DNA of 37,172 bases, from the IMG/VR virus record IMGVR_UViG_3300001832_000005; one strand, given 5' to 3'. The position numbers were made by a program, and so were the translations under genes. The notes under the pieces are model-generated. The model searched no databases and was not told the origin of the DNA. It was given only the letters and a program-made list of their open reading frames with translations. Origin of the DNA: a virus. Shown here piece by piece: positions 411-37,172 of this stretch (position 1 is the first letter of the stretch; every line of letters begins with the position of its first letter).

Positions 411-499
411 GTGGGAACTTTCTTTAAGATGAACTCAAGAATCCGTCAATGCCCTTGCAGTGGTCAACGGATTTATGAAACGAACACAAGTGGGAACTT
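411..499. repeat. Two copies of GTGGGAACTT (411-420, 490-499) flanking a hairpin
   Basis: Exact 10-mer read twice, 79 nt apart, in the gap between convergent genes. The extended similarity is GTGGGAACTTTCTTTAA vs GTGGGAACTTGTTTAAT. Confidence 0.6.
439..474. terminator. Hairpin in the convergent intergenic gap; possible bidirectional terminator
   Basis: GAATCCGT (439-446) pairs with ACGGATTT (467-474), 7 bp plus a G-T pair, with a 20-nt loop and only a short T run. Weak as an intrinsic terminator. Confidence 0.3.
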
Positions 500-527: not shown

Positions 528-1061
528 TTACTCGCCTTTAAATTTTTCGGGATTAGCTTTAACATAACTTCGTATATTAATGACATCACTACAGATGTAT
601 GCGTATTTAGAAGCAGGGTTTATCATATAGCCACTTGCGTGAAGCTGCTGACATTTCAAAATACGAACGAGGTGTTTATCATGCACTTGCTTGTCTAGTT
701 CTTCTTTGGCTAGGTCTAGCTTTACTTTTGCTAATTCGTTACAAGTTTGATTATCTCCCAGAGGTATCATAAAACTCATCTGTACTCCCCAACCTTCGTT
801 TATAGAATATGTTTCTTCGCCTTGTGCATCATTTCCTGTATAAAAAGGAGTTACAGCCAAAGTAGGTTGACTACAAACTAAGTTTCCAAACTGCTGTTTA
901 CCTGTCATTCCATTATTAATATTCATATTCTGGTTAATAATACTAGAATTACCAACCGCATTTGGTTGAGCCTGTACGTTTGTATCGCCTTCGGCTCTTG
1001 CTTTATTACTGACTAAAGACAGACAAAGAAGTGATAACGCTAGTAGTCGTAATCGCATCAT
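528..1061 (-). CDS. Exported protein of unknown function (177 aa) with a cleavable-type signal peptide
   Basis: N-terminus MMRLRLLALSLLCLSLVSNKARA/EGD, an Asn/Gln-rich segment, 5 Cys in the mature part, and a Lys/Glu helical segment (NELAKVKLDLAKEELDKQ). No family recognised. Confidence 0.7.
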   Translation of the reverse strand: MMRLRLLALSLLCLSLVSNKARAEGDTNVQAQPNAVGNSSIINQNMNINNGMTGKQQFGNLVCSQPTLAVTPFYTGNDAQGEETYSINEGWGVQMSFMIPLGDNQTCNELAKVKLDLAKEELDKQVHDKHLVRILKCQQLHASGYMINPASKYAYICSDVINIRSYVKANPEKFKGE

Positions 1062-1371
1062 TCTGTGTAATTTGTTCTATTTTATCTCCTGCTGATCTTG
1101 TGGTTACTTGTAATGACCAATCAGCAGTAGCAGTATTGGGAGTAAAAATTGCATCTGAATGTGTTATACCACCAGATGAAGCACTTGTAACAGAAATATT
1201 TGATGCTTCCCAACTGGACAGGGCAGACCCATATTTCTCAGTAACGATAGATCGTGTAATAGTCTGAGTAGTATTTTCTGTGCGGTTGCTAGAGCCAGTA
1301 GTCCACGTTGGTACTCCGTTTGCGTAGCAAGGAGCAACTAAAAATAAACCTAGTAGTAATAGTTTTTTCAT
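1006..1371 (-). CDS. Exported Ser/Thr-rich protein of unknown function (121 aa)
   Basis: N-terminus MKKLLLLGLFLVAPCYA/NG (signal peptide; VAPC is only a poor lipobox). ATGA overlap with the upstream gene and 56-nt overlap with the downstream gene. Confidence 0.65.
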   Translation of the reverse strand: MKKLLLLGLFLVAPCYANGVPTWTTGSSNRTENTTQTITRSIVTEKYGSALSSWEASNISVTSASSGGITHSDAIFTPNTATADWSLQVTTRSAGDKIEQITQNDAITTTSVITSLSVFSQ

Positions 1372-1622
1372 TTGATACCTACCTTGTTTTTACTATTATC
1401 CACTATTTTAGGAGAATTGCCATTTTTCTTTTGACCAACAGAAATTCCATAAGAACCTAGCACACCACTTACTAGACCTGCGGTAAATGCTCCGTCAATC
1501 CTTACCTTACCCATATACCCTAAAGTCATCATTGATAAACTCCAACTTAAAATTAGAAATCGGACAGCGTGACCAAACAGATCGCCCCAATCAAAACCTT
1601 CTTTTTCTTCTTTTTCTTCCAT
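1368..1622 (-). CDS. Small two-TM membrane protein with class II holin-like architecture (84 aa)
   Basis: Acidic N-terminus MEEKEEKEGFD, two hydrophobic helices (AVRFLILSWSLSMMTLGYMG and GAFTAGLVSGVLGSYGISVG), and a Lys-rich C-tail. Confidence 0.6.
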   Translation of the reverse strand: MEEKEEKEGFDWGDLFGHAVRFLILSWSLSMMTLGYMGKVRIDGAFTAGLVSGVLGSYGISVGQKKNGNSPKIVDNSKNKVGIK

Positions 1623-1636
1623 GAAAAGTTAAGACT

Positions 1637-1646
1637 CTTGTTTAAT
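1637..1646. repeat. Right copy of 10-bp direct repeat CTTGTTTAAT bracketing the minus-strand cassette
   Basis: Exact match to 497-506; lies 14 nt beyond the start codon of the first cassette gene. Confidence 0.7.
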
Positions 1647-1672
1647 ACTACCAAGTTAGCTATGTTTGGAAA
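1645..1672 (-). promoter_or_regulatory. Candidate sigma70-type promoter for the minus-strand cassette
   Basis: The minus strand reads TTTCCA, 16 nt, TGgTAGTAT (extended -10), about 25 nt upstream of the ATG at 1622. Judged by eye only. Confidence 0.35.
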
Positions 1673-1854
1673 GTAACACAATAGTTATTATGCTAAAAAT
1701 CTTAAAACCAATACTACTAAAATTCTTTACCACTACTGCTGTAAAGAGATTAGTAGTCGATTTGCTTAGAGCAATCTGCAAACAAACTACCAACACGTTA
1801 GATGATCGTGCTGTGGATATGTTGGAGCAACAACTATTCCCAAAACTGAACTGA
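1666..1854 (+). CDS. Hypothetical small protein (TTG start at 1666, or ATG at 1690)
   Basis: ORF track entry. No SD and no family recognised. Diverges from the minus-strand cassette. Confidence 0.5.
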   Translation: MESNTIVIMLKILKPILLKFFTTTAVKRLVVDLLRAICKQTTNTLDDRAVDMLEQQLFPKLN

Positions 1855-1855
1855 T

Positions 1856-2164
1856 ATGAACAATAGAGAATTTTTCAATGTTCTTATTGGTAATCCTCCT
1901 CCAGAAGTAGAGCTAGAAATAGAAATAAAATGCAGGGAGGTTAAAGAACTACCAGACTTTGTTATTAAAGACTATTGTTGTGACCTTGTAAAACAGATAA
2001 GACTACAAGATATGTTACTTATGGCATCACTTATAAAGATTTCTGAAGCAGAAACTAGGAATTATCATCTTGAAAGAGAGCTAAAACAATATAGAAAGAT
2101 ACAAAAACAAGGATTACTAGGTAAAGTTAGGTATGTATTGTTTGGCAATAGAGCTAAAAAGTGA
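1856..2164 (+). CDS. Hypothetical protein with a coiled-coil C-terminal half (102 aa)
   Basis: ORF packed 1 nt after the previous stop. Confidence 0.55.
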   Translation: MNNREFFNVLIGNPPPEVELEIEIKCREVKELPDFVIKDYCCDLVKQIRLQDMLLMASLIKISEAETRNYHLERELKQYRKIQKQGLLGKVRYVLFGNRAKK

Positions 2165-2191: not shown

Positions 2192-2413
2192 ATGGATAGA
2201 AATTTAAAATTACTAAAGACCATACATTATGAGTTGGCTAAACATATACTTGATCTGATAAAAAGTGGCGAAGCAAAGGCAGGAGACTTAAACGTAGCTA
2301 GACAATTTTTAAAAGATAATGGTATCGAGTGTATTCCTGTAGAAAATAACCCAATAGAAGACCTTATGACCAATTTACCAGACCTAGAGACTATCCCTCC
2401 TAGCGAATTATAA
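2192..2413 (+). CDS. Probable terminase small subunit (T7 gp18 position)
   Basis: 73-aa ORF abutting the large terminase gene. The call rests on synteny and size. Confidence 0.5.
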   Translation: MDRNLKLLKTIHYELAKHILDLIKSGEAKAGDLNVARQFLKDNGIECIPVENNPIEDLMTNLPDLETIPPSEL

Positions 2414-4135
2414 TTGCAAGAACTACCAGAAAAGCTACTTGACTTTAGATATTTCTTAATCGTTACTTGGAGACATCTAAACCTACCAGACCCTACACCT
2501 GTTCAGCTAGATATAGCAGAATATCTACAACATGGGGCTAGAAGAAAGATCATACAGGGGTTTCGTGGGGTAGGTAAGAGTTGGATTACCAGTACTTATG
2601 TTGTTTGGCGATTAAGAATAGACCCACAACTAAAGTTTCTTGTGGTATCCGCTAGTAAAGACAGGGCTGATAACTTTACTACCTTTACTATGCGTCTTAT
2701 AAACGAGATGCCTATACTAGCTCCACTAATCCCCAGAGATGACCAGAGAAACAGTAAGGTAAGTTTTGATGTAAGACCTGCCAGTGCCGATCATGCACCC
2801 TCTTGTTCCTCTAAAGGGGTCTTATCGCAGCTTGCAGGGAGTCGTGCTGATGAAGTCATAGCAGATGATTGCGAAGTACCTAACAACAGCTTTACGCAGC
2901 CTATGAGAGACAAACTAGGCGAAGCTGTAAAAGAATTTGAAGCGATATTAAAACCAAACGGAAAGATTACCTTCCTTGGTACACCACAAGTAGAAAATAG
3001 TTTGTACCTAACACTAGAAGAACGTGGCTATGAAACACGAATATGGACAGCTAGGTACCCAAACCATAAAAACAACTATGGAGATCGCCTTGCTCCTCGT
3101 ATTGCAAAGAACTTATCAGAAGGAATTGCAGAACCAAAAGACCCTGTTGACCCTATAAGGTTCTCAGCCATTGATCTAATGGAGCGTGAAGCGTCTTATG
3201 GGCGATCAGGGTTCAATCTACAGTTCATGCTCGATACGACCCTTTCAGACCAAGATAGATACCCCTTAAAAATTAACGACCTAATAATTATGTCGGTCAA
3301 TAAAGAATACGCACCTGAAAAAGTTATATGGTCTAACTCTCCTGAGTATGTAATTACTGATTTACCCTGCGTTGGATTCAATGGAGACAGGTATCATAGA
3401 CCTGCACAGGAGTTCGGAGACTACATTGAATACACTGGCAGCGTAATGTTCGTTGACCCCTCTGGTACAGGAAAAGATCAGACAGCTATATCCTGTGTAA
3501 AGATGCTAAATGGTAACTTATTCGTTACAGAGTGCTTCGGTTTGTCGGGAGGTTACTCCGATAGAGTCCTAGAACGCATAGCTAGAACCGCAAAAGTCAA
3601 TAAAATCAACACGATAATCGTAGAACAGAACTTTGGTGGTGGTATGTTTTCACAATTACTAAAACCTTTTCTAATGACTTACCACCCTTGCGAAGTAAAA
3701 GACGTGCGAAATACCAAAACTAAAGAATTACGCATAATCGACACTTTAGAACCTGTAATGAACTCTCATAGACTTATTATTGACCGCAAAGTTATAGATA
3801 ATGACTTTAGATCAAACCCTGATGAGACTCCTGAAAGAAGACTTAAACTACAACTTGCCTATCAACTTAGTCGTATCTCTAGGAACAAAGGTTCGCTAGT
3901 TCATGATGACCTTTGTGACTCACTTGCAGGTGCAGTTGCCTATTGGACAGACTATATGGCTCAAACTGAAGACATGAATATCGCTAAAAGACATGATGAA
4001 TTACTTAATACACACCTAGAAAACTGGGGTGCTTTAGTAAATAACACAATATCTCAATCCGCTATGGGTATGACTCCTACTCAGATAAGAAATTCTAATG
4101 TACCTAATGATGGTTTCATAAGCGGAGCTTATTAG
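2414..4135 (+). CDS. terL: Terminase large subunit (T7 gp19-like)
   Basis: Walker A-like FRGVGKSWITS, and D-rich nuclease motifs (VIADDCE, MFVDPSGTGKDQTA). Apparent TTG start directly after the upstream TAA. Confidence 0.92.
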   Translation: MQELPEKLLDFRYFLIVTWRHLNLPDPTPVQLDIAEYLQHGARRKIIQGFRGVGKSWITSTYVVWRLRIDPQLKFLVVSASKDRADNFTTFTMRLINEMPILAPLIPRDDQRNSKVSFDVRPASADHAPSCSSKGVLSQLAGSRADEVIADDCEVPNNSFTQPMRDKLGEAVKEFEAILKPNGKITFLGTPQVENSLYLTLEERGYETRIWTARYPNHKNNYGDRLAPRIAKNLSEGIAEPKDPVDPIRFSAIDLMEREASYGRSGFNLQFMLDTTLSDQDRYPLKINDLIIMSVNKEYAPEKVIWSNSPEYVITDLPCVGFNGDRYHRPAQEFGDYIEYTGSVMFVDPSGTGKDQTAISCVKMLNGNLFVTECFGLSGGYSDRVLERIARTAKVNKINTIIVEQNFGGGMFSQLLKPFLMTYHPCEVKDVRNTKTKELRIIDTLEPVMNSHRLIIDRKVIDNDFRSNPDETPERRLKLQLAYQLSRISRNKGSLVHDDLCDSLAGAVAYWTDYMAQTEDMNIAKRHDELLNTHLENWGALVNNTISQSAMGMTPTQIRNSNVPNDGFISGAY

Positions 4136-4153
4136 GTTGCACTATAGGAGATT
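4130..4153 (+). promoter_or_regulatory. Phage single-subunit RNAP promoter candidate (SP6/K11/T7-like), +1 at G4147
   Basis: TATTAGGTTGCACTATAGGAG matches the remembered SP6 promoter ATTTAGGTGACACTATAGAAG at 16 of 21 positions. The CACTATAGG core is identical to T7. It overlaps the terL stop codon. Confidence 0.65.
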
Positions 4154-4256
4154 CCTCCGTATGGGTTGAGGTAGTTGTCTGATCGCAGCTACCTCGTACA
4201 CACTAAGATTACACTAGGATTATCTGAGTGGCGTCTATCCATCTCGTACAAAGATT
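4140..4256 (+). repeat. Cluster of short direct repeats and a hairpin in the presumed genome-end region
   Basis: CACTATAGGAGATT (4140), CACTAAGATT (4201) and CACTAGGATT (4212). CTCGTACA at 4193 and 4243. Hairpin GAGGTAG/CTACCTC at 4168-4195. Confidence 0.7.
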
Positions 4257-4456
4257 TTCCTGTGTGATCTTATCCAGAAAAAATTTTGGCAAAAAAATCT
4301 GAAGCCCTTACACTTCTCTCGGAAGTGCGATCTCCCCGTCTTGATTTTTTTATTTTCTTTGAGATTCTTCGATATTTGACATTTAATAAGTCAAAACCAC
4401 TGCTATGACTACAGTTTCAGAATATTACTACTATTCTTGAGGCTCTTCTGGTCAAA

Positions 4457-4616
4457 ATTTTTTATATATGCTTTTGTTTTTTCTTTTAATCGGTATGGGG
4501 TCAGGGATAAAAAATATAAATCAAAGAGAATAAAAAATATATATATAGGGATTCAAAAAGAAAAGAAAAAAAGAAACTAAAAGAAACAAAAAAGAAACTC
4601 AATAAAAAACTAAAAG
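4457..4616. repeat. AT-rich dyad with phased A-tract repeats; origin-like region
   Basis: T-rich arm 4457-4488, GC island CGGTATGGGGTCAGGG, (TA)5 at 4538-4547, a polypurine tract, and AAGAAAC at 4571, 4581 and 4592 (10-11 nt phasing). Confidence 0.45.
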
Positions 4617-4801: not shown

Positions 4802-5761
4802 ATGACTATTTCAAAACCAAGAGTAAAAGTTGAAGAGGAAATTCTTAATGACTTCATGAGAATCCTAGAGGAGAACAAAGATTCTAGGAATCCTTGGTCT
4901 AAACCTTGGACTCCTAGCTCTTCGGAGGGTCACATTAATTTCCTTACTGGTAACAAATATCAGGGCATGAATGTAATTATTCTTGAGATGTATCAATTCT
5001 CAAAAGGTTATGAACTACCTTGTTGGATAGGCTACCAACAGGCAAAAAAAGAGTTCAACTGCGTGCCTAGAAAAGGCTCAAAAGCTGCTCGCATAGTACG
5101 TCCTAATCCTATCAAGATTGATGCTAAAGATGACAACGGCAACCCTATTCTTGACAAAGAGGGCAACCCAGAATTTTTCATGAAAATGACATTCAAGGGT
5201 GCCACTGTTTTCAATATCGCTGACCTAGTAGGTCTTGATGATAAAGCTCAAGAAAAGCTAGACCAAAAAATTGCAAGCTTCAAAACTAAATGTGTTGAAA
5301 ATGCAAGGCCACTTGCTGAAAGATGCAAAGCTGCTCATGATCGCTTGATGATCTTTAAAGATGAGCTAGAGGGCGGTCTAAATCATGGCTCAGATTCAGC
5401 CTACTACAGGCACGATCTTGACTCAGTGACCATGCCAAATAGGGAAGACTTCAAGAATGATGAAGCTTATCTTTCAACACTGGCTCATGAGTTTGCTCAT
5501 GCTACAGGTCATAAGGATAGATTGAATCGTAAGTGGTTAAACAACTACGCTCAATACAGGCCTCAAGAAGAGTTGGTTGCAGAATTCTCAAGCGTGCTTT
5601 TAGCTAATCGCTTACAGATCACTTGCGATACTCAAAACCACGCTTCATACCTTGGCGGTTGGGCTTCAAGAATCAAGGATTCAAAGAACCCTGCTCAAGA
5701 GTTATTCAAGGTCTTTGCATACGCTTCCAAGGCTGCTAATACAGTACTAGGAGAAGCTTAA
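4802..5761 (+). CDS. ArdC-like protein: N-terminal ssDNA-binding-type domain plus C-terminal HExxH zincin domain
   Basis: NPWSKPW...YQGMNVIILE matches the ArdC N-domain pattern. LAHEFAHATGHKDRLNR and EELVAEFSSVLL match the metallopeptidase domain pattern. Confidence 0.75.
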   Translation: MTISKPRVKVEEEILNDFMRILEENKDSRNPWSKPWTPSSSEGHINFLTGNKYQGMNVIILEMYQFSKGYELPCWIGYQQAKKEFNCVPRKGSKAARIVRPNPIKIDAKDDNGNPILDKEGNPEFFMKMTFKGATVFNIADLVGLDDKAQEKLDQKIASFKTKCVENARPLAERCKAAHDRLMIFKDELEGGLNHGSDSAYYRHDLDSVTMPNREDFKNDEAYLSTLAHEFAHATGHKDRLNRKWLNNYAQYRPQEELVAEFSSVLLANRLQITCDTQNHASYLGGWASRIKDSKNPAQELFKVFAYASKAANTVLGEA

Positions 5762-6057: not shown

Positions 6058-6186
6058 ATGCAAAGAGTAGAAATTATTAATTATGATCGCTTATCAAAAA
6101 GCGACCCACTTTTCCTTAAAGCTATTGAACAAATCAAAAGCCTAGGAATACATGATTCACAACTAAAACAAAAGGAGGTTAAGTAA
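6058..6186 (+). CDS. Hypothetical early protein (42 aa; not in ORF track)
   Basis: ATG at 6058 preceded by GGAGG. It ends in TAA directly before the ATG at 6187 and fills an otherwise unexplained gap. Confidence 0.5.
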   Translation: MQRVEIINYDRLSKSDPLFLKAIEQIKSLGIHDSQLKQKEVK

Positions 6187-6615
6187 ATGAAAGCAGGACA
6201 CTATCTCAAGTGGGCTGAAAAGTCTTTCAAGATTCTTGATAAGTTTCACTCAAGAATGTATGAACTATGGGAAGCTTCAGATGAGACTCAACACTTTGAT
6301 GATGACCTTAACTGTAGGCATCATGATCTTGAAAGAGCTTTAGATGATGACAACTATGACCGCCAAGGTTATGACCGCAACGGATACTTCTTGCAATTAC
6401 AAAGGCAAGATGAATCAATCCAAGGCTGTAATGATCGGGTCAAATATTATCTTGATGAGATTAAAAATCTTAAAGATAAAATCAAGAGAACCAAGGAGAA
6501 AAAAGAGAATCTTAAAACCGCAAGGGAGAAGATGATCTTAGACTTTGATATGGACTACAAGACCATAGAGAAGAGACTCTCCGAGGAGTATCCAGACTTC
6601 TTTCCAGTTGACTAA
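6187..6615 (+). CDS. Hypothetical early protein, acidic with a coiled-coil C-terminus (142 aa)
   Basis: ORF with SD AAGGAGG. Confidence 0.65.
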   Translation: MKAGHYLKWAEKSFKILDKFHSRMYELWEASDETQHFDDDLNCRHHDLERALDDDNYDRQGYDRNGYFLQLQRQDESIQGCNDRVKYYLDEIKNLKDKIKRTKEKKENLKTAREKMILDFDMDYKTIEKRLSEEYPDFFPVD

Positions 6616-6628
6616 TTGAAGCACGCTT

Positions 6629-6648
6629 GCAAGCTCTTCGGAGCTTGC
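6629..6648 (+). promoter_or_regulatory. Intercistronic hairpin with a UUCG tetraloop
   Basis: GCAAGCTC TTCG GAGCTTGC, followed by a second 6-bp hairpin GAGTGA/TCACTC (6651-6670). Confidence 0.55.
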
Positions 6649-6705
6649 CTGAGTGACTCATTACTCACTCACATTTAAACCTTAAACGATAGGAGATTAA
6701 GTACT

Positions 6706-7068
6706 ATGTACTATGGAAGAAAAGGGAACTCAGTTCCATTCTTGAATCCAACTGTATGGTTGGGTCACAAGTCAGACAAGATTCCCAAAGATGACAAGAC
6801 GTTTTATTTCTACCCTTGCATCAAAGTTCATCAAGCTTTAACAAGTAAAAGATGGACAGCTACCTTTGTTAACTATGGGGCTGACAACATAGTTAGTAAA
6901 AAGAAAAATGATGAGTCCTTATCTGAGTTTGAAAATGCTAAACTTGTTTGCTATCAGTTGATGGCTAGACAGACCAAGCATAAGAACAAGAGGGGTCTAA
7001 TCATAGGGGCAGGATACGATTATGACTATTGGTATTTCATAATTGACAGCCTAACAACAACGGATTGA
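6706..7068 (+). CDS. Hypothetical early protein (120 aa)
   Basis: ORF with SD TAGGAG. Confidence 0.65.
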   Translation: MYYGRKGNSVPFLNPTVWLGHKSDKIPKDDKTFYFYPCIKVHQALTSKRWTATFVNYGADNIVSKKKNDESLSEFENAKLVCYQLMARQTKHKNKRGLIIGAGYDYDYWYFIIDSLTTTD

Positions 7069-7084
7069 CAACTTCAATTCATTC

Positions 7085-7113
7085 GGGCATACTGTATTCA
7101 GGTATGCCCTTTT
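7085..7113 (+). terminator. Intrinsic terminator-like hairpin
   Basis: GGGCATAC tgtattcag GTATGCCC followed by TTTT. Confidence 0.6.
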
Positions 7114-7152
7114 CATACCCACCAACCAACCAAAACACAGGAGGTAAATCTA

Positions 7153-7359
7153 ATGGTTGACACATATCCACATAACTGGCTATCTCAAGAAGAGCCAAGG
7201 GATTACAAAAAAGACATCACACAAATTGATGATGGTCTTATTGGTATTCAGATTACCAAAGAAAATGCTAAAGACATTTCAAAAATCTGGGAAGCTCTCA
7301 AGTCTGTACCCGCCCCAAAGAAAGGGGAAGTATGGAAGCACAGAGGAGAGATGTCATGA
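7153..7359 (+). CDS. Hypothetical early protein (68 aa)
   Basis: SD AGGAGG. Preferred over the overlapping 7157..7390 frame because the next gene start overlaps its stop. Confidence 0.55.
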   Translation: MVDTYPHNWLSQEEPRDYKKDITQIDDGLIGIQITKENAKDISKIWEALKSVPAPKKGEVWKHRGEMS

Positions 7360-7487
7360 ACAATTCTTTGATGGAAGAGAGCTTTCATGATTGGCTCGAT
7401 CAATGCCCTAACAACTGGGTTCGTTTAGCTGCTGATGATGACTCATCAACCTATAAATTTTATAGGGAAGATCAGGAGGAAGACTAA
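7356..7487 (+). CDS. Hypothetical early protein (43 aa; not in ORF track)
   Basis: ATG overlaps the previous stop (ATGTCATGA), SD GAGGAG, and the ORF ends in a TAATG overlap with the next gene. Confidence 0.45.
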   Translation: MNNSLMEESFHDWLDQCPNNWVRLAADDDSSTYKFYREDQEED

Positions 7488-7711
7488 TGAGCATAAGTCA
7501 AATCGAAGTAGCTGTTGAGTTTCTCAAAGAGCGTGGTTGGGAGTTTCGACCCGCCCAAAAAATCGAAGGTGTCTTTAAACCTCTGGGTAAATATGATGCC
7601 AAGAATCCTGCTCAAGATGACTTCAGTGTTTATGACAACAACACTTTAAAATCTTTTGCATATTTGATTTCTAAAGCAGAGTCTCAAGGTAAAACTTGGA
7701 GGTATGTTTAA
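7487..7711 (+). CDS. Hypothetical early protein (74 aa)
   Basis: SD AGGAGG and a TAATG junction. Confidence 0.6.
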   Translation: MSISQIEVAVEFLKERGWEFRPAQKIEGVFKPLGKYDAKNPAQDDFSVYDNNTLKSFAYLISKAESQGKTWRYV

Positions 7712-7905
7712 TGCTTAGATCAAAGCACGCAATCTTTATGGAGCTTGATTGTATTCTCCATAGGGCTGCACAACTTACCGATAGAAACTTTACTATCATC
7801 TTGCCCTCTGATGAGGAGGGCAACCTCTTACTTGATGAGTCTATTGAACACTACAAGAAAGAGATTATTAAAACTATTAACCAAATCAAAACGGAGGAAC
7901 TTTAA
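7711..7905 (+). CDS. Hypothetical early protein (64 aa; start refined from track ORF 7696)
   Basis: ATG at 7711 overlaps the previous TAA; SD GGAGG lies 9 nt upstream. Confidence 0.55.
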   Translation: MLRSKHAIFMELDCILHRAAQLTDRNFTIILPSDEEGNLLLDESIEHYKKEIIKTINQIKTEEL

Positions 7906-7906
7906 A

Positions 7907-8224
7907 ATGCACAAGTCTGAAACAGTACACGTCTTTCCTGAAGATCATTTTGAATCTTTAGAATTTGTATGTCATGAAGATGGAATCTTTGATGACAGAT
8001 CAATAGGATACATTTCGGCAACTGACATAGCAGGAGATGAGGTTCATCTCCCTAACGTCAAGAGTCCTGCTGTAGTTAAATTCTTTGCTGACTTTATAGA
8101 GCTTGACAATGTGTTAAGAGAGAAGGACAAAGGGAATGTAGCAACCAAAGAAACCATGAATTACCTAAGAAAAATTCATAAGAAGATTGATGGTTGGATA
8201 CAGCAAGAGAAGGAGGACAAGTAA
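7907..8224 (+). CDS. Hypothetical acidic early protein (105 aa; start refined from track ORF 7745)
   Basis: ATG at 7907 preceded by CGGAGG. The upstream part of the track ORF overlaps the previous gene. Confidence 0.6.
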   Translation: MHKSETVHVFPEDHFESLEFVCHEDGIFDDRSIGYISATDIAGDEVHLPNVKSPAVVKFFADFIELDNVLREKDKGNVATKETMNYLRKIHKKIDGWIQQEKEDK

Positions 8225-8468: not shown

Positions 8469-9308
8469 ATGAAAAACAAAGTACCAACACTCAAGGAAGC
8501 TGCTTTCATAACCTACAAAAGGAGAAAGAACGGAGAGAAATCGGCTGATGATTTTCTCGTCAGCATGAAGCATAATATCCAAGCTCTTGGGAACATACCT
8601 GTAAACAAAATAACTACAAGTATGATTAGCAAGATGAATGACTACAACAAAGCAAGACCCAACTGCAACGAGGTAGTTAATAAAAAGATGGGGCATCTCA
8701 AGTTAGTACTTGATGATTGCAAAGATGATGGACACTTAACAATGCCTGAGTTTCCCAAGCCATTGAAGGTAAAGAAGAATAAGAAAGTTCATTACCTTAC
8801 AAATGAAATGGAGATTGAGCTATTGGATAAGGTCACAGAGCTAGGACATGATGAACATAGAGATGTATTCAAGTGCTTGATTGATCTAGGTTGCAGGTGC
8901 ATGGAGCTACTCACTCTTGAGAAAAGATTTATTGACTTTGAAAAGAATCAAATTACATTTCAAGAAAGGAAAAACGGAAGGCCAAACACTGTACCAATGA
9001 GTAACAAAGTAAGAGATATTATCAAGCCATACTATGACAAGTGCAATACGTTGGACTATGTATTCGACCATAATTATTATTGGGCTGAGAGTGTGTTCAA
9101 GAAGGTCAAGAAAGAACTAGGTTATGAGCAACACAAGTGGTACAGGATACATCTGTTTAGAGATACAGCAGGGTCAAGATTAGTACAACGTGGAGTACAT
9201 CTCTTGATAGTCAGAGATTGGTTAGGTCATGAAGATGTAAAGATGACAGAGAAGTATGCTCATCTTGCCCCTAACTCTATGCACTCAGTTGTGGAGGTCT
9301 TGAACTAA
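8469..9308 (+). CDS. int: Tyrosine recombinase / phage integrase (279 aa)
   Basis: Catalytic-type motifs: GCRCMELLTL (Arg), HLFRDTA (HxxR), WLGHEDVKMTEKYAHL (His and Tyr). Confidence 0.9.
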   Translation: MKNKVPTLKEAAFITYKRRKNGEKSADDFLVSMKHNIQALGNIPVNKITTSMISKMNDYNKARPNCNEVVNKKMGHLKLVLDDCKDDGHLTMPEFPKPLKVKKNKKVHYLTNEMEIELLDKVTELGHDEHRDVFKCLIDLGCRCMELLTLEKRFIDFEKNQITFQERKNGRPNTVPMSNKVRDIIKPYYDKCNTLDYVFDHNYYWAESVFKKVKKELGYEQHKWYRIHLFRDTAGSRLVQRGVHLLIVRDWLGHEDVKMTEKYAHLAPNSMHSVVEVLN

Positions 9309-15672: not shown

Positions 15673-15894
15673 ATGATAATAGTTTCAATCTTATTCTTGG
15701 CAGTTAAGTTACCACAAATTACTGATGACTTGATACAAGGACTAGATGAGGTCTTTCCTAACCGCCAACCTGAACTGTCATTTTCTGATAAGGAGGTTTG
15801 GTATCGGGCAGGGCAAAGGTTTGTTGTTGATTACTTAATCGACCAACAAAAGAGACAACGTGAAACTATGTTAACTGAACAAGTTTTAGATTAG
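15673..15894 (+). CDS. Hypothetical protein with a hydrophobic N-terminus (73 aa)
   Basis: ORF track entry; first ORF of the late block. Confidence 0.5.
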   Translation: MIIVSILFLAVKLPQITDDLIQGLDEVFPNRQPELSFSDKEVWYRAGQRFVVDYLIDQQKRQRETMLTEQVLD

Positions 15895-25122: not shown

Positions 25123-28122
25123 ATGGTTTACAGATCAAAAGTACAAAGAACAGACCCCTTTGTTAATCAAAGTACTATTGGTGCTGTTAATCTAAATAGT
25201 CCTGTTGCTCAAGTTGCACAAGCTTTGGCAACTATAGAACCTAATCTGCAAAAAGTAATAGTTAACAAAATAAAAGAAATAAAACGAGATGAGACAGTAG
25301 AGGGATTTCAAAAAGGACAGCGAGCAGGAAGTAATTATATGGCACAATCAGAACTCCTATATCCAAAAGAAACTGAGTTAGATGAAACTACAGGACAGAT
25401 AGCTAATAAATTGGCTGCTTTAACAAAGGCAGGTAATGAAGAAGAATCAAGAATGTTAAGAGCAAATAACCCTTGGTTTAAACACGCTTTTTATTCTGGT
25501 AAATCAAAATCGTTAGCAAAAGGTTTAAGTAAAGAGTGGGTAGAAGATATTAAAAGAGTTCAAATGGTTGACCCTCAGGATAACAAACTAAAATCAATGG
25601 CTGCTTTTCCTTTTAGTAGTCCACAAGTTCAGGGATATATAGCAGGAAAAAGAAATGCAAGAGTTGAACAACTTGATATGCCTGAATACTATGTCAAAAA
25701 ATACTTTTTACCTGAATTAGAAAATGGTATTAATAGTTTTCAAGAAGAACATACAAAATTAAGAACAGATTTAAAATTAGATAATTTTGAAAAACTTAAC
25801 AGGATAGGTTTAGAAACAATAGTCAGCGAATATCTATTACAAGATAAAGGTAAAGGTAGGGAGTATATAAAAAGTGAATTAAAAATTTGGACAGATGAGT
25901 TAAGAAAATACTATGTCGGTAAAGACTTTACTAAAGAAATGGGAGTTCATACAGACTATTTAATGGATAGAGCTATTGCTATAGCTAGTCAAAAAAGTGC
26001 AGGAGAAGCTAGGTTTCAAGATGCAAGAGATTTTATACAAGACTTTGCTAGTTTATTTCCAAGCTACTCACTAGGTAAAAAGAAAGTAATAGGTGCTGAT
26101 GGTGTAGAAAAAACAGTAGTTGCAGCTAATCCTCGTAACTCTTTAAAAAATTCAAAAAACTTTTTAGATAAATTAAATACAACTTTAAAAACAATAGACA
26201 CCTTAGAAAGCAGACATTATGATTTTCAAGACAAAATTCAACCTAAGTTAGATATAGAAGAAGCTGAAAAAATTATATTAGAAGATGATGGGAAAATGTC
26301 TGAAGAGAAAAGAGAAGCAAATCAAGACAGAATAAACGAGCTTATTGCTACTGACCCAAAAGTTGCTAAATGGGTTAAAGATAATCAATATGTTTTATCT
26401 GAAAATAATAAAGAACGTCAAATTTATTATCAGCAAAAAATTACTTTTGGAGAGATAAGAGATAAAAAATATGGTATGACAATTATAAATGATATATGGA
26501 ATAAGAGTTTGAAAACACCTGCTGATTTAGAATTTAGAGAAAATATGATTAATGCTTTAAAAGATGATGTAAAAAATGCAAATCAAGTTGCAATAAAAGC
26601 AGCAGGAGACACAGTATCGCAGCTAAATAAAATTTACCAAAACAAAAAAGATATTACTCCTAATATGCAAGATCAAATAGAAGACATACAGTTTTCAATA
26701 CCAAATAGATATTTACAGTATTGGAAAACTCCTTCTATTGATACAGGACAGGTTGATGAAAATGGTAAGCCAATACTTAGAACACCAAATGATGATGAAT
26801 TTAAAGACTTTGTAAATCAAGTACAAGAACAATCTATTAACAAAATTCGAGCAATTAGAGATGTTTCAGCAGGAGAAGGTAATCAGACTTTTAACCAGAA
26901 TCGTACTATTGACCAATTTAATCAAGATATTTTAGAGGATAACAGAGTAAGAGCTAGGTCTTTAATTTTTACTGCACAGACTTTAAAAGTAGAAGCACCA
27001 TTTATAGATGGAGTACAAGAAAGACCAACCTTAGAAGATGTGGCTGAACAGTTTTCTTATGGAGAACCAATAAGTGCTGATGGAATTATTGCTTCTTTTA
27101 ATGATGCTGAAGGTAACTTTGATACGACTCAGAAAGATAGTATTAGACAGTTTTTTAGATTTGTAAGGGTTACTGATAACCAAATCAAACAATATGGATT
27201 AGTCGAAAAAGGAGCTTTATCTAATGAAAGGCTAACAGAATATAGAAAAAACACTAATGTAGATAGAGGAGGAGTAATAATAGAAGGACAAAGTGGTCAA
27301 GTAGATGATGGAACAGTAGGGGAAGGTTCTGAAAATGTTGATAATTCACAAGTTTCAGATGAGACACAAGATGAGAAATCTAGTAATACTGGGGAAAAGA
27401 AAGAAGGCATAAAAAACATAAATGACATGGAAGGTGTTATTGACCCTAAAGAAATTAGGAAGAGTGGTCTTGACCAAAACAACTTAGGAAATATTGCTAA
27501 TAATTTTATTAATGCCATAACTGGTACTCAATCAGCACAAGCAGGAGAATTTCAAAAGCCAGTAATGAATCCTGAAGTTTTAAAACTTATTGAAGATGAA
27601 GACAAAGTATTATCAGCAAAAGATATAGGTATTAAAGATGAGAAAGAAGAACCTAACGGAGCAAGAAGGCAAGAACATAATTTCGTAATTTTCTATAATT
27701 TAGCTAAAAAATACGGACATAAGTTCCCTGAACTAACAGCAGCACAGGCTATGCACGAAACTTCAAATGGTGCATCTCCTTCAGGAAAAAATAATTACTT
27801 AGGATTTGAAGCAAACAGAGTACAGATTGAAAGGGGAGAATCATCTCTGCTTGATACTGAGCAAGATTTTGGAAAAGGTTTAGAGAAAACTAAAGAAGAC
27901 TTTGTAGATTTTAAAGATATAAGAGATCAATTTATACAATACAAAAAAGAGTGGAATGACCCATTCTCAGACAGAAAAGGTATTGTAAGTGTAGATACAC
28001 CAGAAGAAGCTTTAGATTTAATTCTTAGCCGACCTGATGATATGTATGCTACAGATAAGGACTACAAACAAAAAGTTCTTAATATCCTAAAAGACGCTAA
28101 AAGAAACCCTGCATTATTTTAA
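25123..28122 (+). CDS. Internal core protein, gp15 position, with a C-terminal glucosaminidase (GH73/FlgJ-like) domain
   Basis: Size and synteny fit. The C-terminus has AAQAMHETSNGASPSGKNNYLGFEA ... FVDFKDIRDQFIQY ... YATDKDYKQKVLNIL. Confidence 0.7.
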   Translation: MVYRSKVQRTDPFVNQSTIGAVNLNSPVAQVAQALATIEPNLQKVIVNKIKEIKRDETVEGFQKGQRAGSNYMAQSELLYPKETELDETTGQIANKLAALTKAGNEEESRMLRANNPWFKHAFYSGKSKSLAKGLSKEWVEDIKRVQMVDPQDNKLKSMAAFPFSSPQVQGYIAGKRNARVEQLDMPEYYVKKYFLPELENGINSFQEEHTKLRTDLKLDNFEKLNRIGLETIVSEYLLQDKGKGREYIKSELKIWTDELRKYYVGKDFTKEMGVHTDYLMDRAIAIASQKSAGEARFQDARDFIQDFASLFPSYSLGKKKVIGADGVEKTVVAANPRNSLKNSKNFLDKLNTTLKTIDTLESRHYDFQDKIQPKLDIEEAEKIILEDDGKMSEEKREANQDRINELIATDPKVAKWVKDNQYVLSENNKERQIYYQQKITFGEIRDKKYGMTIINDIWNKSLKTPADLEFRENMINALKDDVKNANQVAIKAAGDTVSQLNKIYQNKKDITPNMQDQIEDIQFSIPNRYLQYWKTPSIDTGQVDENGKPILRTPNDDEFKDFVNQVQEQSINKIRAIRDVSAGEGNQTFNQNRTIDQFNQDILEDNRVRARSLIFTAQTLKVEAPFIDGVQERPTLEDVAEQFSYGEPISADGIIASFNDAEGNFDTTQKDSIRQFFRFVRVTDNQIKQYGLVEKGALSNERLTEYRKNTNVDRGGVIIEGQSGQVDDGTVGEGSENVDNSQVSDETQDEKSSNTGEKKEGIKNINDMEGVIDPKEIRKSGLDQNNLGNIANNFINAITGTQSAQAGEFQKPVMNPEVLKLIEDEDKVLSAKDIGIKDEKEEPNGARRQEHNFVIFYNLAKKYGHKFPELTAAQAMHETSNGASPSGKNNYLGFEANRVQIERGESSLLDTEQDFGKGLEKTKEDFVDFKDIRDQFIQYKKEWNDPFSDRKGIVSVDTPEEALDLILSRPDDMYATDKDYKQKVLNILKDAKRNPALF

Positions 28123-33505: not shown

Positions 33506-36500
33506 ATGGCACAAATTGATTTAGGCAAACTTAAGTTTAACTTCATGGGGGAGTGGAACAATAGCACTGCCTACAAAAAAGATGACGTAGTTTATTACGA
33601 AGGTTCAACTTATGTTTATAGGTCAGATGTAAACGCAAACGCAGGAACACCACCTCAAAATACACATCTTGGCAGTGTTTGTGATTTGATGGCACTGGGT
33701 ATTAATTATAGAGGAGCTTGGCAAAGTGGAACTAATTACTACAAAGGAGATTTAGTTGATTGGCAAAATGCAAAATATTTATTTATAGGTACTGGAAATA
33801 ATAACGTAAATACTTTTAGTCCTACCGCAGCAGGTTATACAAGTCTTTGGTCAGTGTTTATTCCTGCCAACCCTGCTGATGTTTTAACAACAAGTGGCGA
33901 CTTGTTAATGAGAGAGAATGACGGAGTAGCAAATGTAAGATTGCCAGTAGGTAAGAAAGGACAATCTATAACAGTAATAGAAAAACCAGACCAAGATATA
34001 CCAAACGATAAAAACTTTGACTATGCTCCTTTTACTGGTAATGGAGATGCCCTTGGTTCTGGTATGGTTAGGTGGTTACTAGGAGATGAGAGAGAAACTT
34101 ATGAATCAATTACTTATACAGTTACAGTGGCAACAGGTGCTAGTAATACAAATCAGTTTCACATGAGTGGAGGTAGTCTTTCTGGAACTGTTGAAAGACC
34201 TACACTAGATATAAAGATTGGGTCACAATATATCTTTGATGTTAGTGACGCTAGTAATACAGGTCATGTTTTAGCTTTTAGACACTGGACAGGTAGTTCT
34301 TATCCAGAAGTTGCTGTTGAAGCTGAGATGGGTATAACAAGATCAGGAACAGCAGGTCAGGCAGGAGCAACAATAACTTGGGTTCCTACACCTGCTTCTC
34401 AATATGTTTTAAGATATTTCTGCTCTGTTCACTCAAGTATGAGTGATGGTATTTTTGCTACTAACTTTACTAGAGGACAGCAATTCCCTAAGATTTACAG
34501 ATCGCCAACACAAACTACTGCTGTCAAACTTTCAAAAGGAAAAACTTATTCATTTACGTTTCCTGCGAACCAAAGAACTTACTCAATAAAAGATACTGCT
34601 GACTCAAACTATAACCCAACTCTTACAGGTGGTCGTTATGAAAAAGGAGTCAGCCCAACCTCTGTTACTAATGGAGGAACTATAAGTTTTACTGTTCCTG
34701 ATGATGCACCACAAACATTAAGTTTAGAAGATCAAAACGGAGGAGGAGATGCTCTGACTTTCAGTATTAAAGATAGAGCTTTTGTTCCTTCTTATGGAGG
34801 TGGAGATTTTAGTGAAAAAAGTGTTCTTAGTTCTGTAAAAGAAAACTATCAACAAAACACAGCAGGAATACTTCAATTTAATAATTTCATTAACCAAGCA
34901 GGTAATACATATACAGAATCAATAAAAGCTTTACCTGATTATTTGAAGAAGGTAGGTCGAGGGTATGTGTATGGTTGTAACTCTGGAATGTATAGACAGG
35001 GTGGATATATAGGAAAGAGAGAAACTCATTTATGGGGTAACTTTTACCATGATGGTAACGATTATGTATATGGTGGTGGTGTTGGATTAGATGGAAACAA
35101 CGCAACTAATGGTAGTAGATGGCACCCAAACAAAGGAAGTAAGGTACAAGGCTACAAGCTAAGACAGGCACTAGCAGGTAATCCTGACTATGCTCATCTT
35201 CTTACAGATTTGCTTGGTAATAATTGCGATATGTTAGATGATAGCGGAAACATAGTTCATAGATTTCCTAAAGTTTTATCAGTTCATGGTAATAGAGCTA
35301 TCAAATATCATTTATGTGAAAATGGTATGGTCTGGTTTAGTGGATATAACGGATATGGATTAATGGGAGATGGAGGAACTAGAGATAGAAACGAAGTGCA
35401 AGCACCTATGAAATGGTATGACGAAAGTACATCTGAATTAAAAGGCACTAACTATCCAAAAATTAAACAGCTAGTAACTACTCATGGTCATACTATGGAC
35501 ACTAATAGTACTGATTATGGTTCAACTTACGCAGTAGATATAAACGGATTTTTATACAGTTGGGGTTACAACGGATATGGACAGTTAGGAGATGGAACTA
35601 ATAACGGAAATAACTACGCAAAGAGAGTACCCGCTAGTGTATTTAATAATGAGAAAGTATTATATGTAACTTGTAGTGGCTATAGATATACACACGTTAT
35701 GGTTATTACTGAATCAGGTAAGTGTTGGGCAACAGGTTATGGAGATCAAGGTCAACTAGGATTAAATAACACATCTAGTAGAAATGAGTTTGCTGAAGTA
35801 ACAGCAGTTAGCGGTTCTCCTTTAAATGGCAAGAAAATAATTCACATAATAATGAACCAAGATGCTGACGCAGAAGGTAGAACATGGTGGTTAACAGACG
35901 AAGGTAAGGTTTATTACGCAGGTTACTTTAGAGATTACGGACAGCAAACAGGTGTGTATGACTCTAGCGGTTCGGGAACTAATGGTATGCCTAGAATACT
36001 TACTAACTCAAGTACTCTATGGAATAGTGATGACCAAAAAGTTATTTATATGGTTTGTACTAATGTCAGATATTCAACTTTATGGTTTATAACAGATGGC
36101 GGTTCTACTGGTATGGAACAGAAAATATACTCAACAGCATCTAATTACTATGGAGTACAAGGAACTAATAATTCTCCTAATAGCCATACTAACTCTCCAT
36201 CTTTAGGTGGTTGGTTTGGTGGAGAAATATTGTTCTCTGACTTTGGAGACTTTGAAGATGGTGGAGATAACAGCAGACCGAATGAAGCTATAGGTAACTG
36301 GTCTAGTTTCCAAGATGGTGGTAGTAATGAAAAGAAAATGAAGATAGGTAAAATAATTGAGATTATTCCTAGAGGTACACCTGAGAATACATATAACTCT
36401 GTTGTCGTAATGGACGAGTTCGGTTCATTATTCTTTGCAGGTTATTGGAACTACACACCAAGTAGATCAAATGAAAATGATGGACAGCATTATTTAATAT

Positions 36501-36733
36501 ATCAAAATCACTGGGTTCCTTATTTTATTCACTGGCCTGACCAACCTTCACAATGTATGGAAAATGGATTCTGTCATCTTGGATATGGTACAGAAAATGG
36601 TTGGTTCTGGTTAAGTAGATTTGGAGATGTATATACAGGTGGAGATAATTCTTGGTATCAGCAATCAGATTACAATAGTAGTGGATATGATTGCGGATTC
36701 CCAAGTTGGACTACACTAGATACAAACGGATAA
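33506..36733 (+). CDS. Receptor-binding tail fibre (1075 aa): CBM5/12-like repeats, cupredoxin-like domain, RCC1-like propeller
   Basis: Position is after the adaptor gene. Domain motifs are listed in the findings. Confidence 0.75.
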   Translation: MAQIDLGKLKFNFMGEWNNSTAYKKDDVVYYEGSTYVYRSDVNANAGTPPQNTHLGSVCDLMALGINYRGAWQSGTNYYKGDLVDWQNAKYLFIGTGNNNVNTFSPTAAGYTSLWSVFIPANPADVLTTSGDLLMRENDGVANVRLPVGKKGQSITVIEKPDQDIPNDKNFDYAPFTGNGDALGSGMVRWLLGDERETYESITYTVTVATGASNTNQFHMSGGSLSGTVERPTLDIKIGSQYIFDVSDASNTGHVLAFRHWTGSSYPEVAVEAEMGITRSGTAGQAGATITWVPTPASQYVLRYFCSVHSSMSDGIFATNFTRGQQFPKIYRSPTQTTAVKLSKGKTYSFTFPANQRTYSIKDTADSNYNPTLTGGRYEKGVSPTSVTNGGTISFTVPDDAPQTLSLEDQNGGGDALTFSIKDRAFVPSYGGGDFSEKSVLSSVKENYQQNTAGILQFNNFINQAGNTYTESIKALPDYLKKVGRGYVYGCNSGMYRQGGYIGKRETHLWGNFYHDGNDYVYGGGVGLDGNNATNGSRWHPNKGSKVQGYKLRQALAGNPDYAHLLTDLLGNNCDMLDDSGNIVHRFPKVLSVHGNRAIKYHLCENGMVWFSGYNGYGLMGDGGTRDRNEVQAPMKWYDESTSELKGTNYPKIKQLVTTHGHTMDTNSTDYGSTYAVDINGFLYSWGYNGYGQLGDGTNNGNNYAKRVPASVFNNEKVLYVTCSGYRYTHVMVITESGKCWATGYGDQGQLGLNNTSSRNEFAEVTAVSGSPLNGKKIIHIIMNQDADAEGRTWWLTDEGKVYYAGYFRDYGQQTGVYDSSGSGTNGMPRILTNSSTLWNSDDQKVIYMVCTNVRYSTLWFITDGGSTGMEQKIYSTASNYYGVQGTNNSPNSHTNSPSLGGWFGGEILFSDFGDFEDGGDNSRPNEAIGNWSSFQDGGSNEKKMKIGKIIEIIPRGTPENTYNSVVVMDEFGSLFFAGYWNYTPSRSNENDGQHYLIYQNHWVPYFIHWPDQPSQCMENGFCHLGYGTENGWFWLSRFGDVYTGGDNSWYQQSDYNSSGYDCGFPSWTTLDTNG

Positions 36734-37043: not shown

Positions 37044-37172
37044 TTGGATTATCCACAAATTGATATACCAGAAAGTTTAGTACCGCCTAAAACAATTTTT
37101 TATCCACCTGTGGCAGACGTTCCATATTTAGACCCTCTACTTCTTCCAAGTCTGGAACAGGTAGAGTCGGGT
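37044..37172 (+). CDS. 5' part of the wrap-around ORF continuing at 1..360 (about 155 aa after removing the 21-nt overlap)
   Basis: The frame is open from TTG at 37044 (GTG at 37110 is an alternative start) to the window end. It is in frame with 1..360 through the shared 21-mer. Confidence 0.5.
   Translation, partial: MDYPQIDIPESLVPPKTIFYPPVADVPYLDPLLLPSLEQVESG
37152..37172. repeat. 21-nt terminal overlap identical to 1..21
   Basis: Exact identity read directly. Confidence 0.9.

Follow-up and report, generated by a model that had tools for sequence, protein, structure and literature searches.

In phage T7, the holin gene (17.5) and the spanin genes (18.5/18.7) lie between the tail-fiber and terminase genes, and gene 3.5 encodes an amidase. 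Most phages of Prochlorococcus and Synechococcus (picocyanophages) have no identified holin, spanin or stand-alone endolysin; their hosts are among the most abundant marine phototrophs and release carbon through viral lysis as a major route. P-SSP7 lacks T7 genes 3.5, 17.5 and 18.5, and open reading frames (ORFs) at the same positions have been proposed as replacements (Sullivan et al. 2005, PMC1079782). Picocyanophages, P-SSP7, P-SSM2, P-SSM7, S-ShM2 and P-HM1/2 among them, account for 20 of the 91 "spanin-less" phages of Kongari et al. (2018, PMC6139136), who ask whether another route through the outer membrane exists. Here, we describe a locus in the IMG/VR record IMGVR_UViG_3300001832_000005, a stretch of 37,172 bp (the window, to whose full length all coordinates refer), in which the T7 slot for 17.5/18.5/18.7, between tail fiber and terminase, is occupied by three minus-strand genes, B, C and D, a placement already pointed out in a sequence-only reading of this DNA. 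B-C-D is the core operon of an envelope module that also comprises the genes A and orf54 and, in myoviruses and siphoviruses, a gene X; the 20 spanin-less picocyanophages have this module. The families of B (DUF6450), C (a DUF6322 relative) and D were already catalogued with no function assigned, and what is defined here is the linked, pan-cyanophage module. We tentatively favor, with rather limited confidence, a reading of B-C-D as a non-canonical lysis module in which a holin-like B is combined with exported C and D that act on the cell wall or outer membrane. The five or six genes of the module are the best available candidate for host lysis by picocyanophages, and a defined and testable one.

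The three genes are tightly coupled. The stop codon of B (84 amino acids [aa], 1368-1622) overlaps the start of C (121 aa, 1006-1371) in an ATGA at 1368-1371 (TCAT on the plus strand), and D (177 aa, 528-1061) starts 56 nucleotides (nt) inside C, so that the last 56 nt of C (1006-1061) double as code for the D signal peptide in a different frame. The ratio of nonsynonymous to synonymous substitution rates (dN/dS) relative to P-SCSP2 and P-SCSP1h is 0.10-0.25 for B, 0.12-0.17 for C and 0.08-0.12 for D, and such purifying selection identifies all three as real genes. Their coordinates, both overlaps and their status as the only minus-strand genes had been read correctly from the sequence; every other minus-strand ORF of at least 80 aa is nested in a longer plus-strand ORF. 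Like 17.5/18.5/18.7, the trio joins a small membrane protein to two envelope proteins, one of which starts within the gene of the other, but it has no sequence similarity to the T7 genes, is inverted, carries its own putative host-type promoter and includes no counterpart of the gene 3.5 amidase. The arrangement of C and D also matches that of overlapped two-component spanins (P2 lysB/lysC, T5), whose second gene begins, in a different frame, before the first has ended and is often mis-started by gene callers, and whose products are extracytoplasmic with conserved periplasmic cysteines. C, however, lacks the N-terminal transmembrane (TM) segment and coiled coil of such spanins, and D lacks a lipoprotein signal.

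B has an acidic N-terminus (net charge -5), a Lys-rich C-terminus (net +5) and two hydrophobic segments, residues 19-37 and a Gly-, Ala- and Ser-rich stretch at 44-63. The charge pattern had been described correctly, and the two TM helices claimed for B are weakly hydrophobic in this copy (Kyte-Doolittle [KD] hydropathy about 1.3) and more convincing in homologs: the P-SSP7 segments score 1.8 and 1.5, and the GenBank note for the B homolog PSSP7_043 states that TMHMM predicts two transmembrane regions. This layout resembles, on sequence grounds, both class II holins or pinholins and the T4 Imm protein. Phage 21 S68 is likewise small, with two segments, a short loop and a Lys-rich C-terminus, and the second helix of B shares its Gly/Ala/Ser-rich composition with GxxxG-type spacing; B differs from class II holins in lacking homology to them, in lacking a signal-arrest-release (SAR) or other endolysin partner and in the weak hydrophobicity of its segments. 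B had been thought to belong to no recognizable family, which holds for function; it is, however, a member of Pfam DUF6450 (PF20048; 29.8 bits against a cutoff of 25, E = 5.3e-7), which its P-HM1 homolog (T4-GC 218) matches with E = 5e-33. DUF6450 was the only Pfam family matched by B at E <= 1, and Imm_superinfect was not among the matches.

C carries a signal peptide (residues 1-17) with predicted cleavage between CYA and NGVP, followed by a mature part that is rich in Ser/Thr and, by prediction, in beta structure, with strands only. A17, at the predicted -1 position, is invariant across the family, the mature N-terminus (VP.FT.G) is conserved and the C-terminal SLSVFSQ is nearly invariant. 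C matches phrog_650. The C protein of this genome finds no match to Pfam DUF6322 (PF19847) even at E <= 10, but it aligns with its S-H38 and S-ShM2 homologs (BLASTP, 5e-4 and 1e-5, respectively), its myovirus homologs match DUF6322 (E = 1e-15; P-HM1, 9e-38) and close relatives of C have precomputed PF19847 matches. C thus appears to be a remote relative of DUF6322, reached via the myovirus homologs, and here, too, the earlier statement that no family is recognizable applies to function only. X, the paralog of C found in myoviruses and siphoviruses, is annotated as "OMP1 protein" in S-RSM2 (AJ628768, 697-1191) and S-CAM1 (locus 1438-1932), with no Pfam match.

D has a signal peptide (residues 1-23) with predicted cleavage between ARA and EGDTN, an invariant A23 at the predicted -1 position and a conserved mature N-terminus (EGDTN). 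An Asn/Gln-rich linker is present; C63, C137 and C157 are invariant across the family, and C107 is conserved in 94%. The structural model contains a long beta-hairpin (67-98) and a subsequent 40-residue helix (104-143), and the second strand (85-101) is strongly amphipathic, its hydrophobic/polar alternation being kept across the family. Invariant residues of D are mostly Cys, Gly, Pro and hydrophobic, and C and D show no conserved catalytic motif. D matches phrog_1755/848 and no Pfam domain, also among its at least 8000 metagenomic relatives; C has at least 8000 as well, an abundance that makes the module a potential metatranscriptome marker of late-stage cyanophage infection. A search of representatives with the D profile returned 477 clusters, and in a Foldseek search of BFVD at E <= 0.001 the named matches were all uncharacterized proteins of cyanophages or marine phages. 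The Foldseek list for D against the PDB is headed by TolC, OprJ, OprM, CmeC and VceC, which we treat as no more than a lead that D may associate with the outer membrane: the predicted membrane-length amphipathic hairpin and long helix resemble a TolC repeat, but the matches are not significant (E >= 0.16, TM-scores 0.2-0.3) and D supplies one hairpin per chain. Neither Pfam nor PDB sequences place D among the TolC-family outer-membrane factors.

The signal peptides ascribed to C and D in the earlier reading are borne out by their hydrophobic N-termini and invariant -1 Ala, and as putative exported phage proteins the two would resemble T5 Llp and T4 Sp. Compared with the T7 spanins, C has a cleavable signal peptide where the i-spanin has a membrane anchor, whereas D is far larger than the o-spanin (about 150 aa in its mature form, with conserved cysteines) and has no lipobox; the Cys in its signal peptide is absent in NATL1A-7 and stands in a non-canonical context elsewhere, and every homolog shows AxA followed by E at the cleavage site. 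These features bear on a very different proposal, in which C, D and X serve in the virion or its assembly and their N-terminal hydrophobic stretches are not export signals. The late expression described below and the structural genes next to the module (the podovirus tail fiber, gp9 in S-SSM7) would suit such a role, but the signal peptides are canonical, with the -1 Ala and mature N-termini kept across families that are otherwise 25-40% identical, the conserved cysteines fit an oxidizing compartment, and the text of the P-SCSP1u cryo-EM paper does not mention gp36, gp37 or gp38. We consider a virion role highly improbable.

In every lineage, the end of C also encodes the D signal peptide, in a frame that varies by clade; the two genes overlap by 56 nt here and by about 112 nt in P-SSP7 and P-RSP2. 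D is often misannotated in public records, either extended through C in the other frame, which is open across about 115 codons of gene C ("gp165", about 290-305 aa, a call common in metagenomic annotations), or started late, with loss of the signal peptide. Examples (in locus coordinates) are NATL1A-7 3620-4504, P-SSP7 about 4878-5489, P-RSP2 and S-H38 3438-3893. In P-SSP7 and P-RSP2, a conserved GTG 112 nt inside C is the sole plausible start of D; NATL1A-7 offers no ATG, GTG or TTG near the D signal peptide. We rejected the idea that the 294-aa NATL1A-7 "gp165" is a C-D fusion, as its N-terminal 115 residues are out-of-frame C. A programmed C-to-D frameshift is also unlikely: D lies in the +1 frame in MPP-C and in the +2 frame in P-SSP7/P-RSP2, and in MPP-C D has its own ATG.

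The module is widely distributed within one group of viruses. In tblastn searches, B, C and D each match solely phages of marine Prochlorococcus and Synechococcus; a myovirus D used as a query retrieves 464 phage records, all from picocyanophages or marine single-cell viruses. Among about 185,000 species genomes, D occurs at only 12 loci, all on short contigs of marine metagenome-assembled genomes or in single-cell assemblies, which marks it as a phage gene rather than a host gene. On these searches, the module is exclusive to marine picocyanophages and nearly universal among them, spanning podo-, myo- and siphoviruses. In the T4-like cyanophage clusters, B corresponds to GC 218, A to 234, D to 235 (also "gp165"), C to 236 and X to 237. 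Two layouts prevail. In MPP-C, P-HS2 and MED4-117, orf54 diverges from B-(X)-C-D, on which A converges, and P-RSP2 is the same except for the position of orf54; a convergent arrangement of X-C-D with A is also found in eight large cyanophages, S-SKS1 among them. In the MPP-B/MPP-A phages P-SSP7, NATL1A-7, KBS-P-1A and S-TIP37, A, B, C, D and orf54 follow one another on the same strand. A clean in-place inversion of B-C-D separates the two layouts. The trio of P-SSP7-type phages lies within the structural/packaging block, between tail fiber and terminase; the myovirus B gene is located between regA and gp43, in the hyperplastic region.

This distribution bears on the antisense orientation, which had been presented as particular to this genome and linked to its integrase (8469-9308). 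That view does not survive: the trio is present in the same orientation in P-SCSP1 and P-HS2, inverted in P-SSP7-type phages and found in lytic cyanomyoviruses. The antisense layout is normal for the module and uninformative on lysogeny, since the same layout is common and the P-SCSP1 terminase genes also lie on the minus strand. Expression from a prophage as a lysogenic-conversion moron, one of two readings offered earlier, could draw on the putative host-type promoter of the cassette and on the integrase. Yet 17 P-SCSP1 isolates have the trio and tblastn finds no homolog of this integrase there; the module is carried by P-HS2, a lytic siphovirus, and by hundreds of lytic T4-like cyanomyoviruses; genomes of cyanobacterial isolates lack D; prophages are not seen in Prochlorococcus genomes (PMC7852597); and a minus-strand position extends to the essential terminase genes of P-SCSP1, too. 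We give a role in lysogeny almost no credence, and what persists of that proposal is solely the notion of an autonomous unit transcribed by the host polymerase. Like a moron, B-C-D has its own putative sigma70-type promoter, a hairpin-containing end and an independent orientation, and is shared among unrelated phages; unlike morons, the module is near-universal and constrained in lytic phages rather than sporadic, with no association with lysogeny.

The putative promoter of this unit lies in the most conserved stretch of the locus. The element (1620-1681, minus strand) comprises a -35-like TTTCCA at 1672-1667, a 16-nt spacer, an extended -10 TGgTAGTAT at 1653-1645 and a conserved leader of about 22 nt between the -10 and the B ATG (1622-1620), and thus contains the sigma70-like promoter proposed from the sequence at 1672-1645. 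The candidate scores 8/12 against the sigma70 consensus of Escherichia coli, under the threshold of the scan. Exact copies of a 29-base pattern derived from the element are present in at least 119 IMG/VR contigs. In 77 of 80 of these, the ATG of a B-family gene follows at a distance of 21-22 nt, with B proteins that are 30-99% identical; leader positions beyond the search pattern are at least 90% conserved. Wherever the contig extends far enough (51 of 51), B-(X)-C-D comes after the element in the same orientation; A converges on D in 39 of 41 contigs, and orf54 points away from B in almost all of the 80. The 37,172-nt genome has a single copy of the element, which is not part of any of its repeated phage-promoter-like motifs and shows no RNA structure (z = -0.31).

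The comparison with P-HS2, a lytic siphovirus of MED4 (PMC7852597), is informative as to which polymerase reads the element. P-HS2 has no T7-type RNA polymerase and shares with this genome the module genes alone; the intergenic region (1623-1689) is 86.6% identical between the two, whereas the B coding sequence is 42% and orf54 codons 8-55 are 56% identical. A nucleotide match of about 80% to siphoviruses spans 1609-1752, the promoter region and the start of orf54. The conservation of the element in a phage with no T7-type polymerase indicates a promoter for the host enzyme, and a sigma70-type promoter read by host RNA polymerase is the simplest reading of these sequences. In Syn33 (upstream of 1462) and P-HM1 (upstream of 1344), both of which lack the T4 late-promoter core NATAAATA ahead of the X-C-D operon, fragments identical to the element (TAGTATTAGACAA and AGTCTTAAgTTTT, respectively) are present; as these match the podovirus/siphovirus element, some of the -10/leader region is common even to T4-like phages.

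In T7-like genomes, the right end is the last to enter the cell. A direct view of timing is available from the myovirus P-HM2 infecting MED4 (PMC5082946, S2 Table; locus tags verified against the map). B (PHM2_191), A (PHM2_194) and X (PHM2_197) are late in the light and in the dark, C (PHM2_196) is late in the light and middle in the dark, and D (PHM2_195) is middle in both; the flanking hli genes and PHM2_190 are middle. Transcription of the module homologs is thus mostly late in this myovirus, which is not an MPP-C phage. Of eight myoviruses, four have the late-promoter core NATAAATA at 23-44 nt ahead of the X-C-D operon, where chance would give about 0.01. The T7 inhibitor of host polymerase, gene 2, is missing from P-SSP7 (PMC1079782), so that the host polymerase is probably not shut off and a host-type promoter could remain active late in infection.

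Late expression also enters into a second interpretation, in which B, C and D alter the envelope of the infected cell so as to exclude superinfecting phages or mask receptors, either blocking DNA entry by later phages or preventing the loss of progeny on cell debris. The proteins are small and envelope-targeted and have a putative host-type promoter of their own, as in typical morons, and late expression would suit the protection of progeny. T4 imm maps near gene 43, and the myovirus B gene lies between regA and gp43; Imm (about 83 aa, two membrane helices) and Sp (small, periplasmic export) are envelope-acting like the module. Exclusion genes, however, are usually lineage-specific, fast-evolving and encode single proteins, and Imm and Sp are early, unlinked, single genes of the T-even phages only, whereas the module consists of four to six coupled genes under strong purifying selection, most of them late rather than early in P-HM2. 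The module is, moreover, common to podo-, myo- and siphoviruses, which presumably use different receptors and means of injection, and no module protein matches Pfam Imm_superinfect or any PADLOC model. We regard exclusion or receptor masking as unlikely.

Lysis, the second reading offered earlier, is the one we favor, since the module is the only envelope-targeted protein set in this genome, is near-universal, mostly late and tightly coupled, and occurs in phages that lack known lysis genes. We posit that cyanopodoviruses, which probably leave the host polymerase active, would use it to transcribe the module from the element, and that the module proteins would jointly breach the envelope late in infection. 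B would insert into the inner membrane like a holin, with two helices and both termini inside; C and D would be exported via Sec and their signal peptides removed, D becoming disulfide-bonded and using its amphipathic beta-hairpin and long helix to associate with the cell wall or outer membrane. Late in infection, B may permeabilize the inner membrane, with C and D standing in for the missing spanin or endolysin function. The charge pattern of B would fit class II holin topology, with two segments of modest hydropathy in this copy, and the overlap of C and D and the conserved D cysteines are consistent with spanin gene architecture. Among the relatives, P-SCSP1u lyses its host culture completely, and lysis times of P-SCSP2 are variable (PMC9860041).

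Several observations weigh against lysis. The segments of B in this copy are weakly hydrophobic, and the genome encodes two other small hydrophobic proteins. Searches of Pfam, NCBIfam, PHROGs and PDB sequences relate B, C and D to no holin, endolysin, spanin or other lysis family; the same holds for PADLOC, and in Pfam, NCBIfam and PHROGs the proteins A, B, C, D, orf54 and E (the product of a neighboring gene) match families of unassigned function at most. The absence of clear homology of C and D to endolysins or spanins means that lysis remains a proposal, even if the mostly late expression of the homologs speaks in its favor. No peptidoglycan hydrolase was identified in the module, and B, C and D show no endolysin fold or domain; C does not have the uncleaved N-terminal TM segment and helical coiled coil of an i-spanin, nor D the lipobox of an o-spanin. 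The AlphaFold2 (AF2) model of D is modest (pLDDT 62.7, pTM 0.33), and nothing in the PDB matches it significantly by Foldseek (best TolC-like E = 0.16, TMq 0.26); the invariant E89 falls on the hydrophobic face of the amphipathic strand, which would be awkward if that face contacts lipid. The C model, built on a shallow alignment, reaches a pLDDT of 39.8, and sequence-profile searches of the PDB with C and D gave nothing under E = 0.17. A scan for sigma70 and terminator consensus sequences did not flag the promoter site, and no enrichment was seen; D is a middle rather than a late gene in P-HM2; and no lysis enzymes were found adjoining the module in KBS-P-1A, S-TIP37, P-SSP7 or P-HS2. Literature searches found no published functional study on DUF6450, PSSP7_042-045 or cyanophage holin or spanin genes.

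A further reading is a device that remodels the envelope late or sets the time of lysis and is not itself lytic, for example an antiholin-like, membrane-stabilizing complex during a long latent period or a periplasmic recruiter of host autolysins. Neither C nor D has a conserved catalytic motif, the gene coupling suggests a multiprotein complex and the variable lysis times of P-SCSP2 would fit; but positive evidence is lacking, and such a role would leave these phages with no identified holin or outer-membrane disruptor. We view this device as distinctly unlikely. In the opposite direction, the lysis reading can be extended to a new envelope-spanning machine specific to picocyanobacteria, made of B, C and D with A and, where present, X, in which the holin-like B is coupled to Sec-exported components that are not lipoproteins and an oligomeric beta-hairpin/helix assembly of D in the outer membrane helps to replace spanins and endolysin; we consider this extension doubtful, though not fanciful. 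In such a machine, if real, the hyper-conserved promoter would serve as a host-polymerase timing signal common to unrelated cyanophages and exchanged among them, and the endolysin would be replaced directly or through recruitment of host autolysins or the virion glucosaminidase. The genes of the module are short, and its phages are now engineerable.

The last of these enzymes resides in an internal, gp15-like virion protein of 999 aa (25123-28122, plus strand), whose C-terminal glucosaminidase domain (PF01832, residues 857-992) is the sole peptidoglycan-degrading domain found in the genome. It presumably acts at host entry and might conceivably serve at lysis too. Among the 20 plus-strand proteins scanned, there is no member of a recognized holin, stand-alone endolysin or spanin family; the earlier remark that the genome has no endolysin or spanin is therefore accurate for stand-alone proteins and overlooks the glucosaminidase. 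A 73-aa ORF at 15673-15894 (plus strand; phrog_4970, function not assigned) has an N-terminal hydrophobic segment and, as a small membrane-protein candidate, is a further protein to weigh in looking for the holin of this phage.

The window is a complete, circularly permuted T7-like genome whose two ends overlap by 21 nt, and gene A crosses the junction: its 5' part lies at 37044-37172 (plus strand), with a TTG start right after the stop of the upstream gene, and its 3' part at 1-360 (the frame continues in 22-360), converging on D. The product has 155 aa, with an acidic Pro-rich N-terminal region, a single hydrophobic segment, rich in Ala, Ser, Val and Gly, near the C-terminus and a Lys-rich amphipathic tail. 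Its homologs are PSCSP2_00035, PSCSP1h_00032, PRRG_00019 and, more weakly, P-HS2_00007 (phrog_9426); its counterparts elsewhere are SSP7_042 and myovirus T4-GC 234. The convergent intergenic region between A and D (361-527) contains a hairpin at about 441-474 (minus-strand fold, z = -2.72), with a 10-nt direct repeat, GTGGGAACTT, on either side (411-420 and 490-499). From its sequence, the hairpin is a possible two-way terminator; in the consensus scan, this region yielded a single weak plus-strand terminator-like site, at 374-395.

On the other side of B, orf54 (54 aa, 1690-1854, plus strand; phrog_2738) begins with a Lys-rich hydrophobic N-terminus (MLKILKPILLKFF...) that resembles the tail of A. 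Its proportion of nonsynonymous differences against P-SCSP1h is 0.10, that of synonymous differences 0.96 (pN and pS, respectively). The gene is kept beside the module in every lineage examined, with homologs in P-SCSP2, P-SCSP1h, P-HS2, P-RSP2, NATL1A-7 and P-SSP7; the gene is annotated in P-SCSP1h and unannotated in P-HS2 and P-SCSP2, in the latter despite 98% aa identity. Gene E (102 aa, 1856-2164, plus strand) matches no Pfam or PHROG family and is 51% identical to PSCSP2_00039 (dN/dS 0.20). It ends in VRYVLFG like P-HS2_00012, which has the same position and gives a weak BLASTP match (E = 0.003), and we link E to the module only tentatively.

The nearest relatives of this genome are P-SCSP2 and then P-SCSP1, MED4 Prochlorococcus podoviruses of the MPP-C clade, to which its similarity to the P-SCSP phages, common gene order and genome of about 37 kb also assign it; the locus is 78.9% identical to that of P-SCSP2 at the nucleotide level over 98% of its length. 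An Rfam scan of all 37,172 nt gave no match. Upstream of A, the tail-fiber region includes a 1075-aa protein (33506-36733, plus strand) with RCC1-like beta-propeller repeats and a weak N-terminal CBM5/12 match, preceded by a 315-aa protein with a T7 tail-fiber N-terminal domain. The terminase module (2192-4135, plus strand) is directly followed by an ArdC-N plus zincin metallopeptidase gene (4802-5761, plus strand; phrog_7245), ArdC-like and anti-restriction, which is distinct from the integrase. TerL is 86% identical to that of P-SCSP2, and both resemble TerL of Roseobacter phages (57-59%) more than the P-SCSP1 protein (51%), whose gene lies with the other terminase genes on the minus strand (P-SCSP1h locus 6087-8140). 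Going by these sequences, the terminase difference between the MPP-C sublineages looks like a module replacement combined with an inversion.

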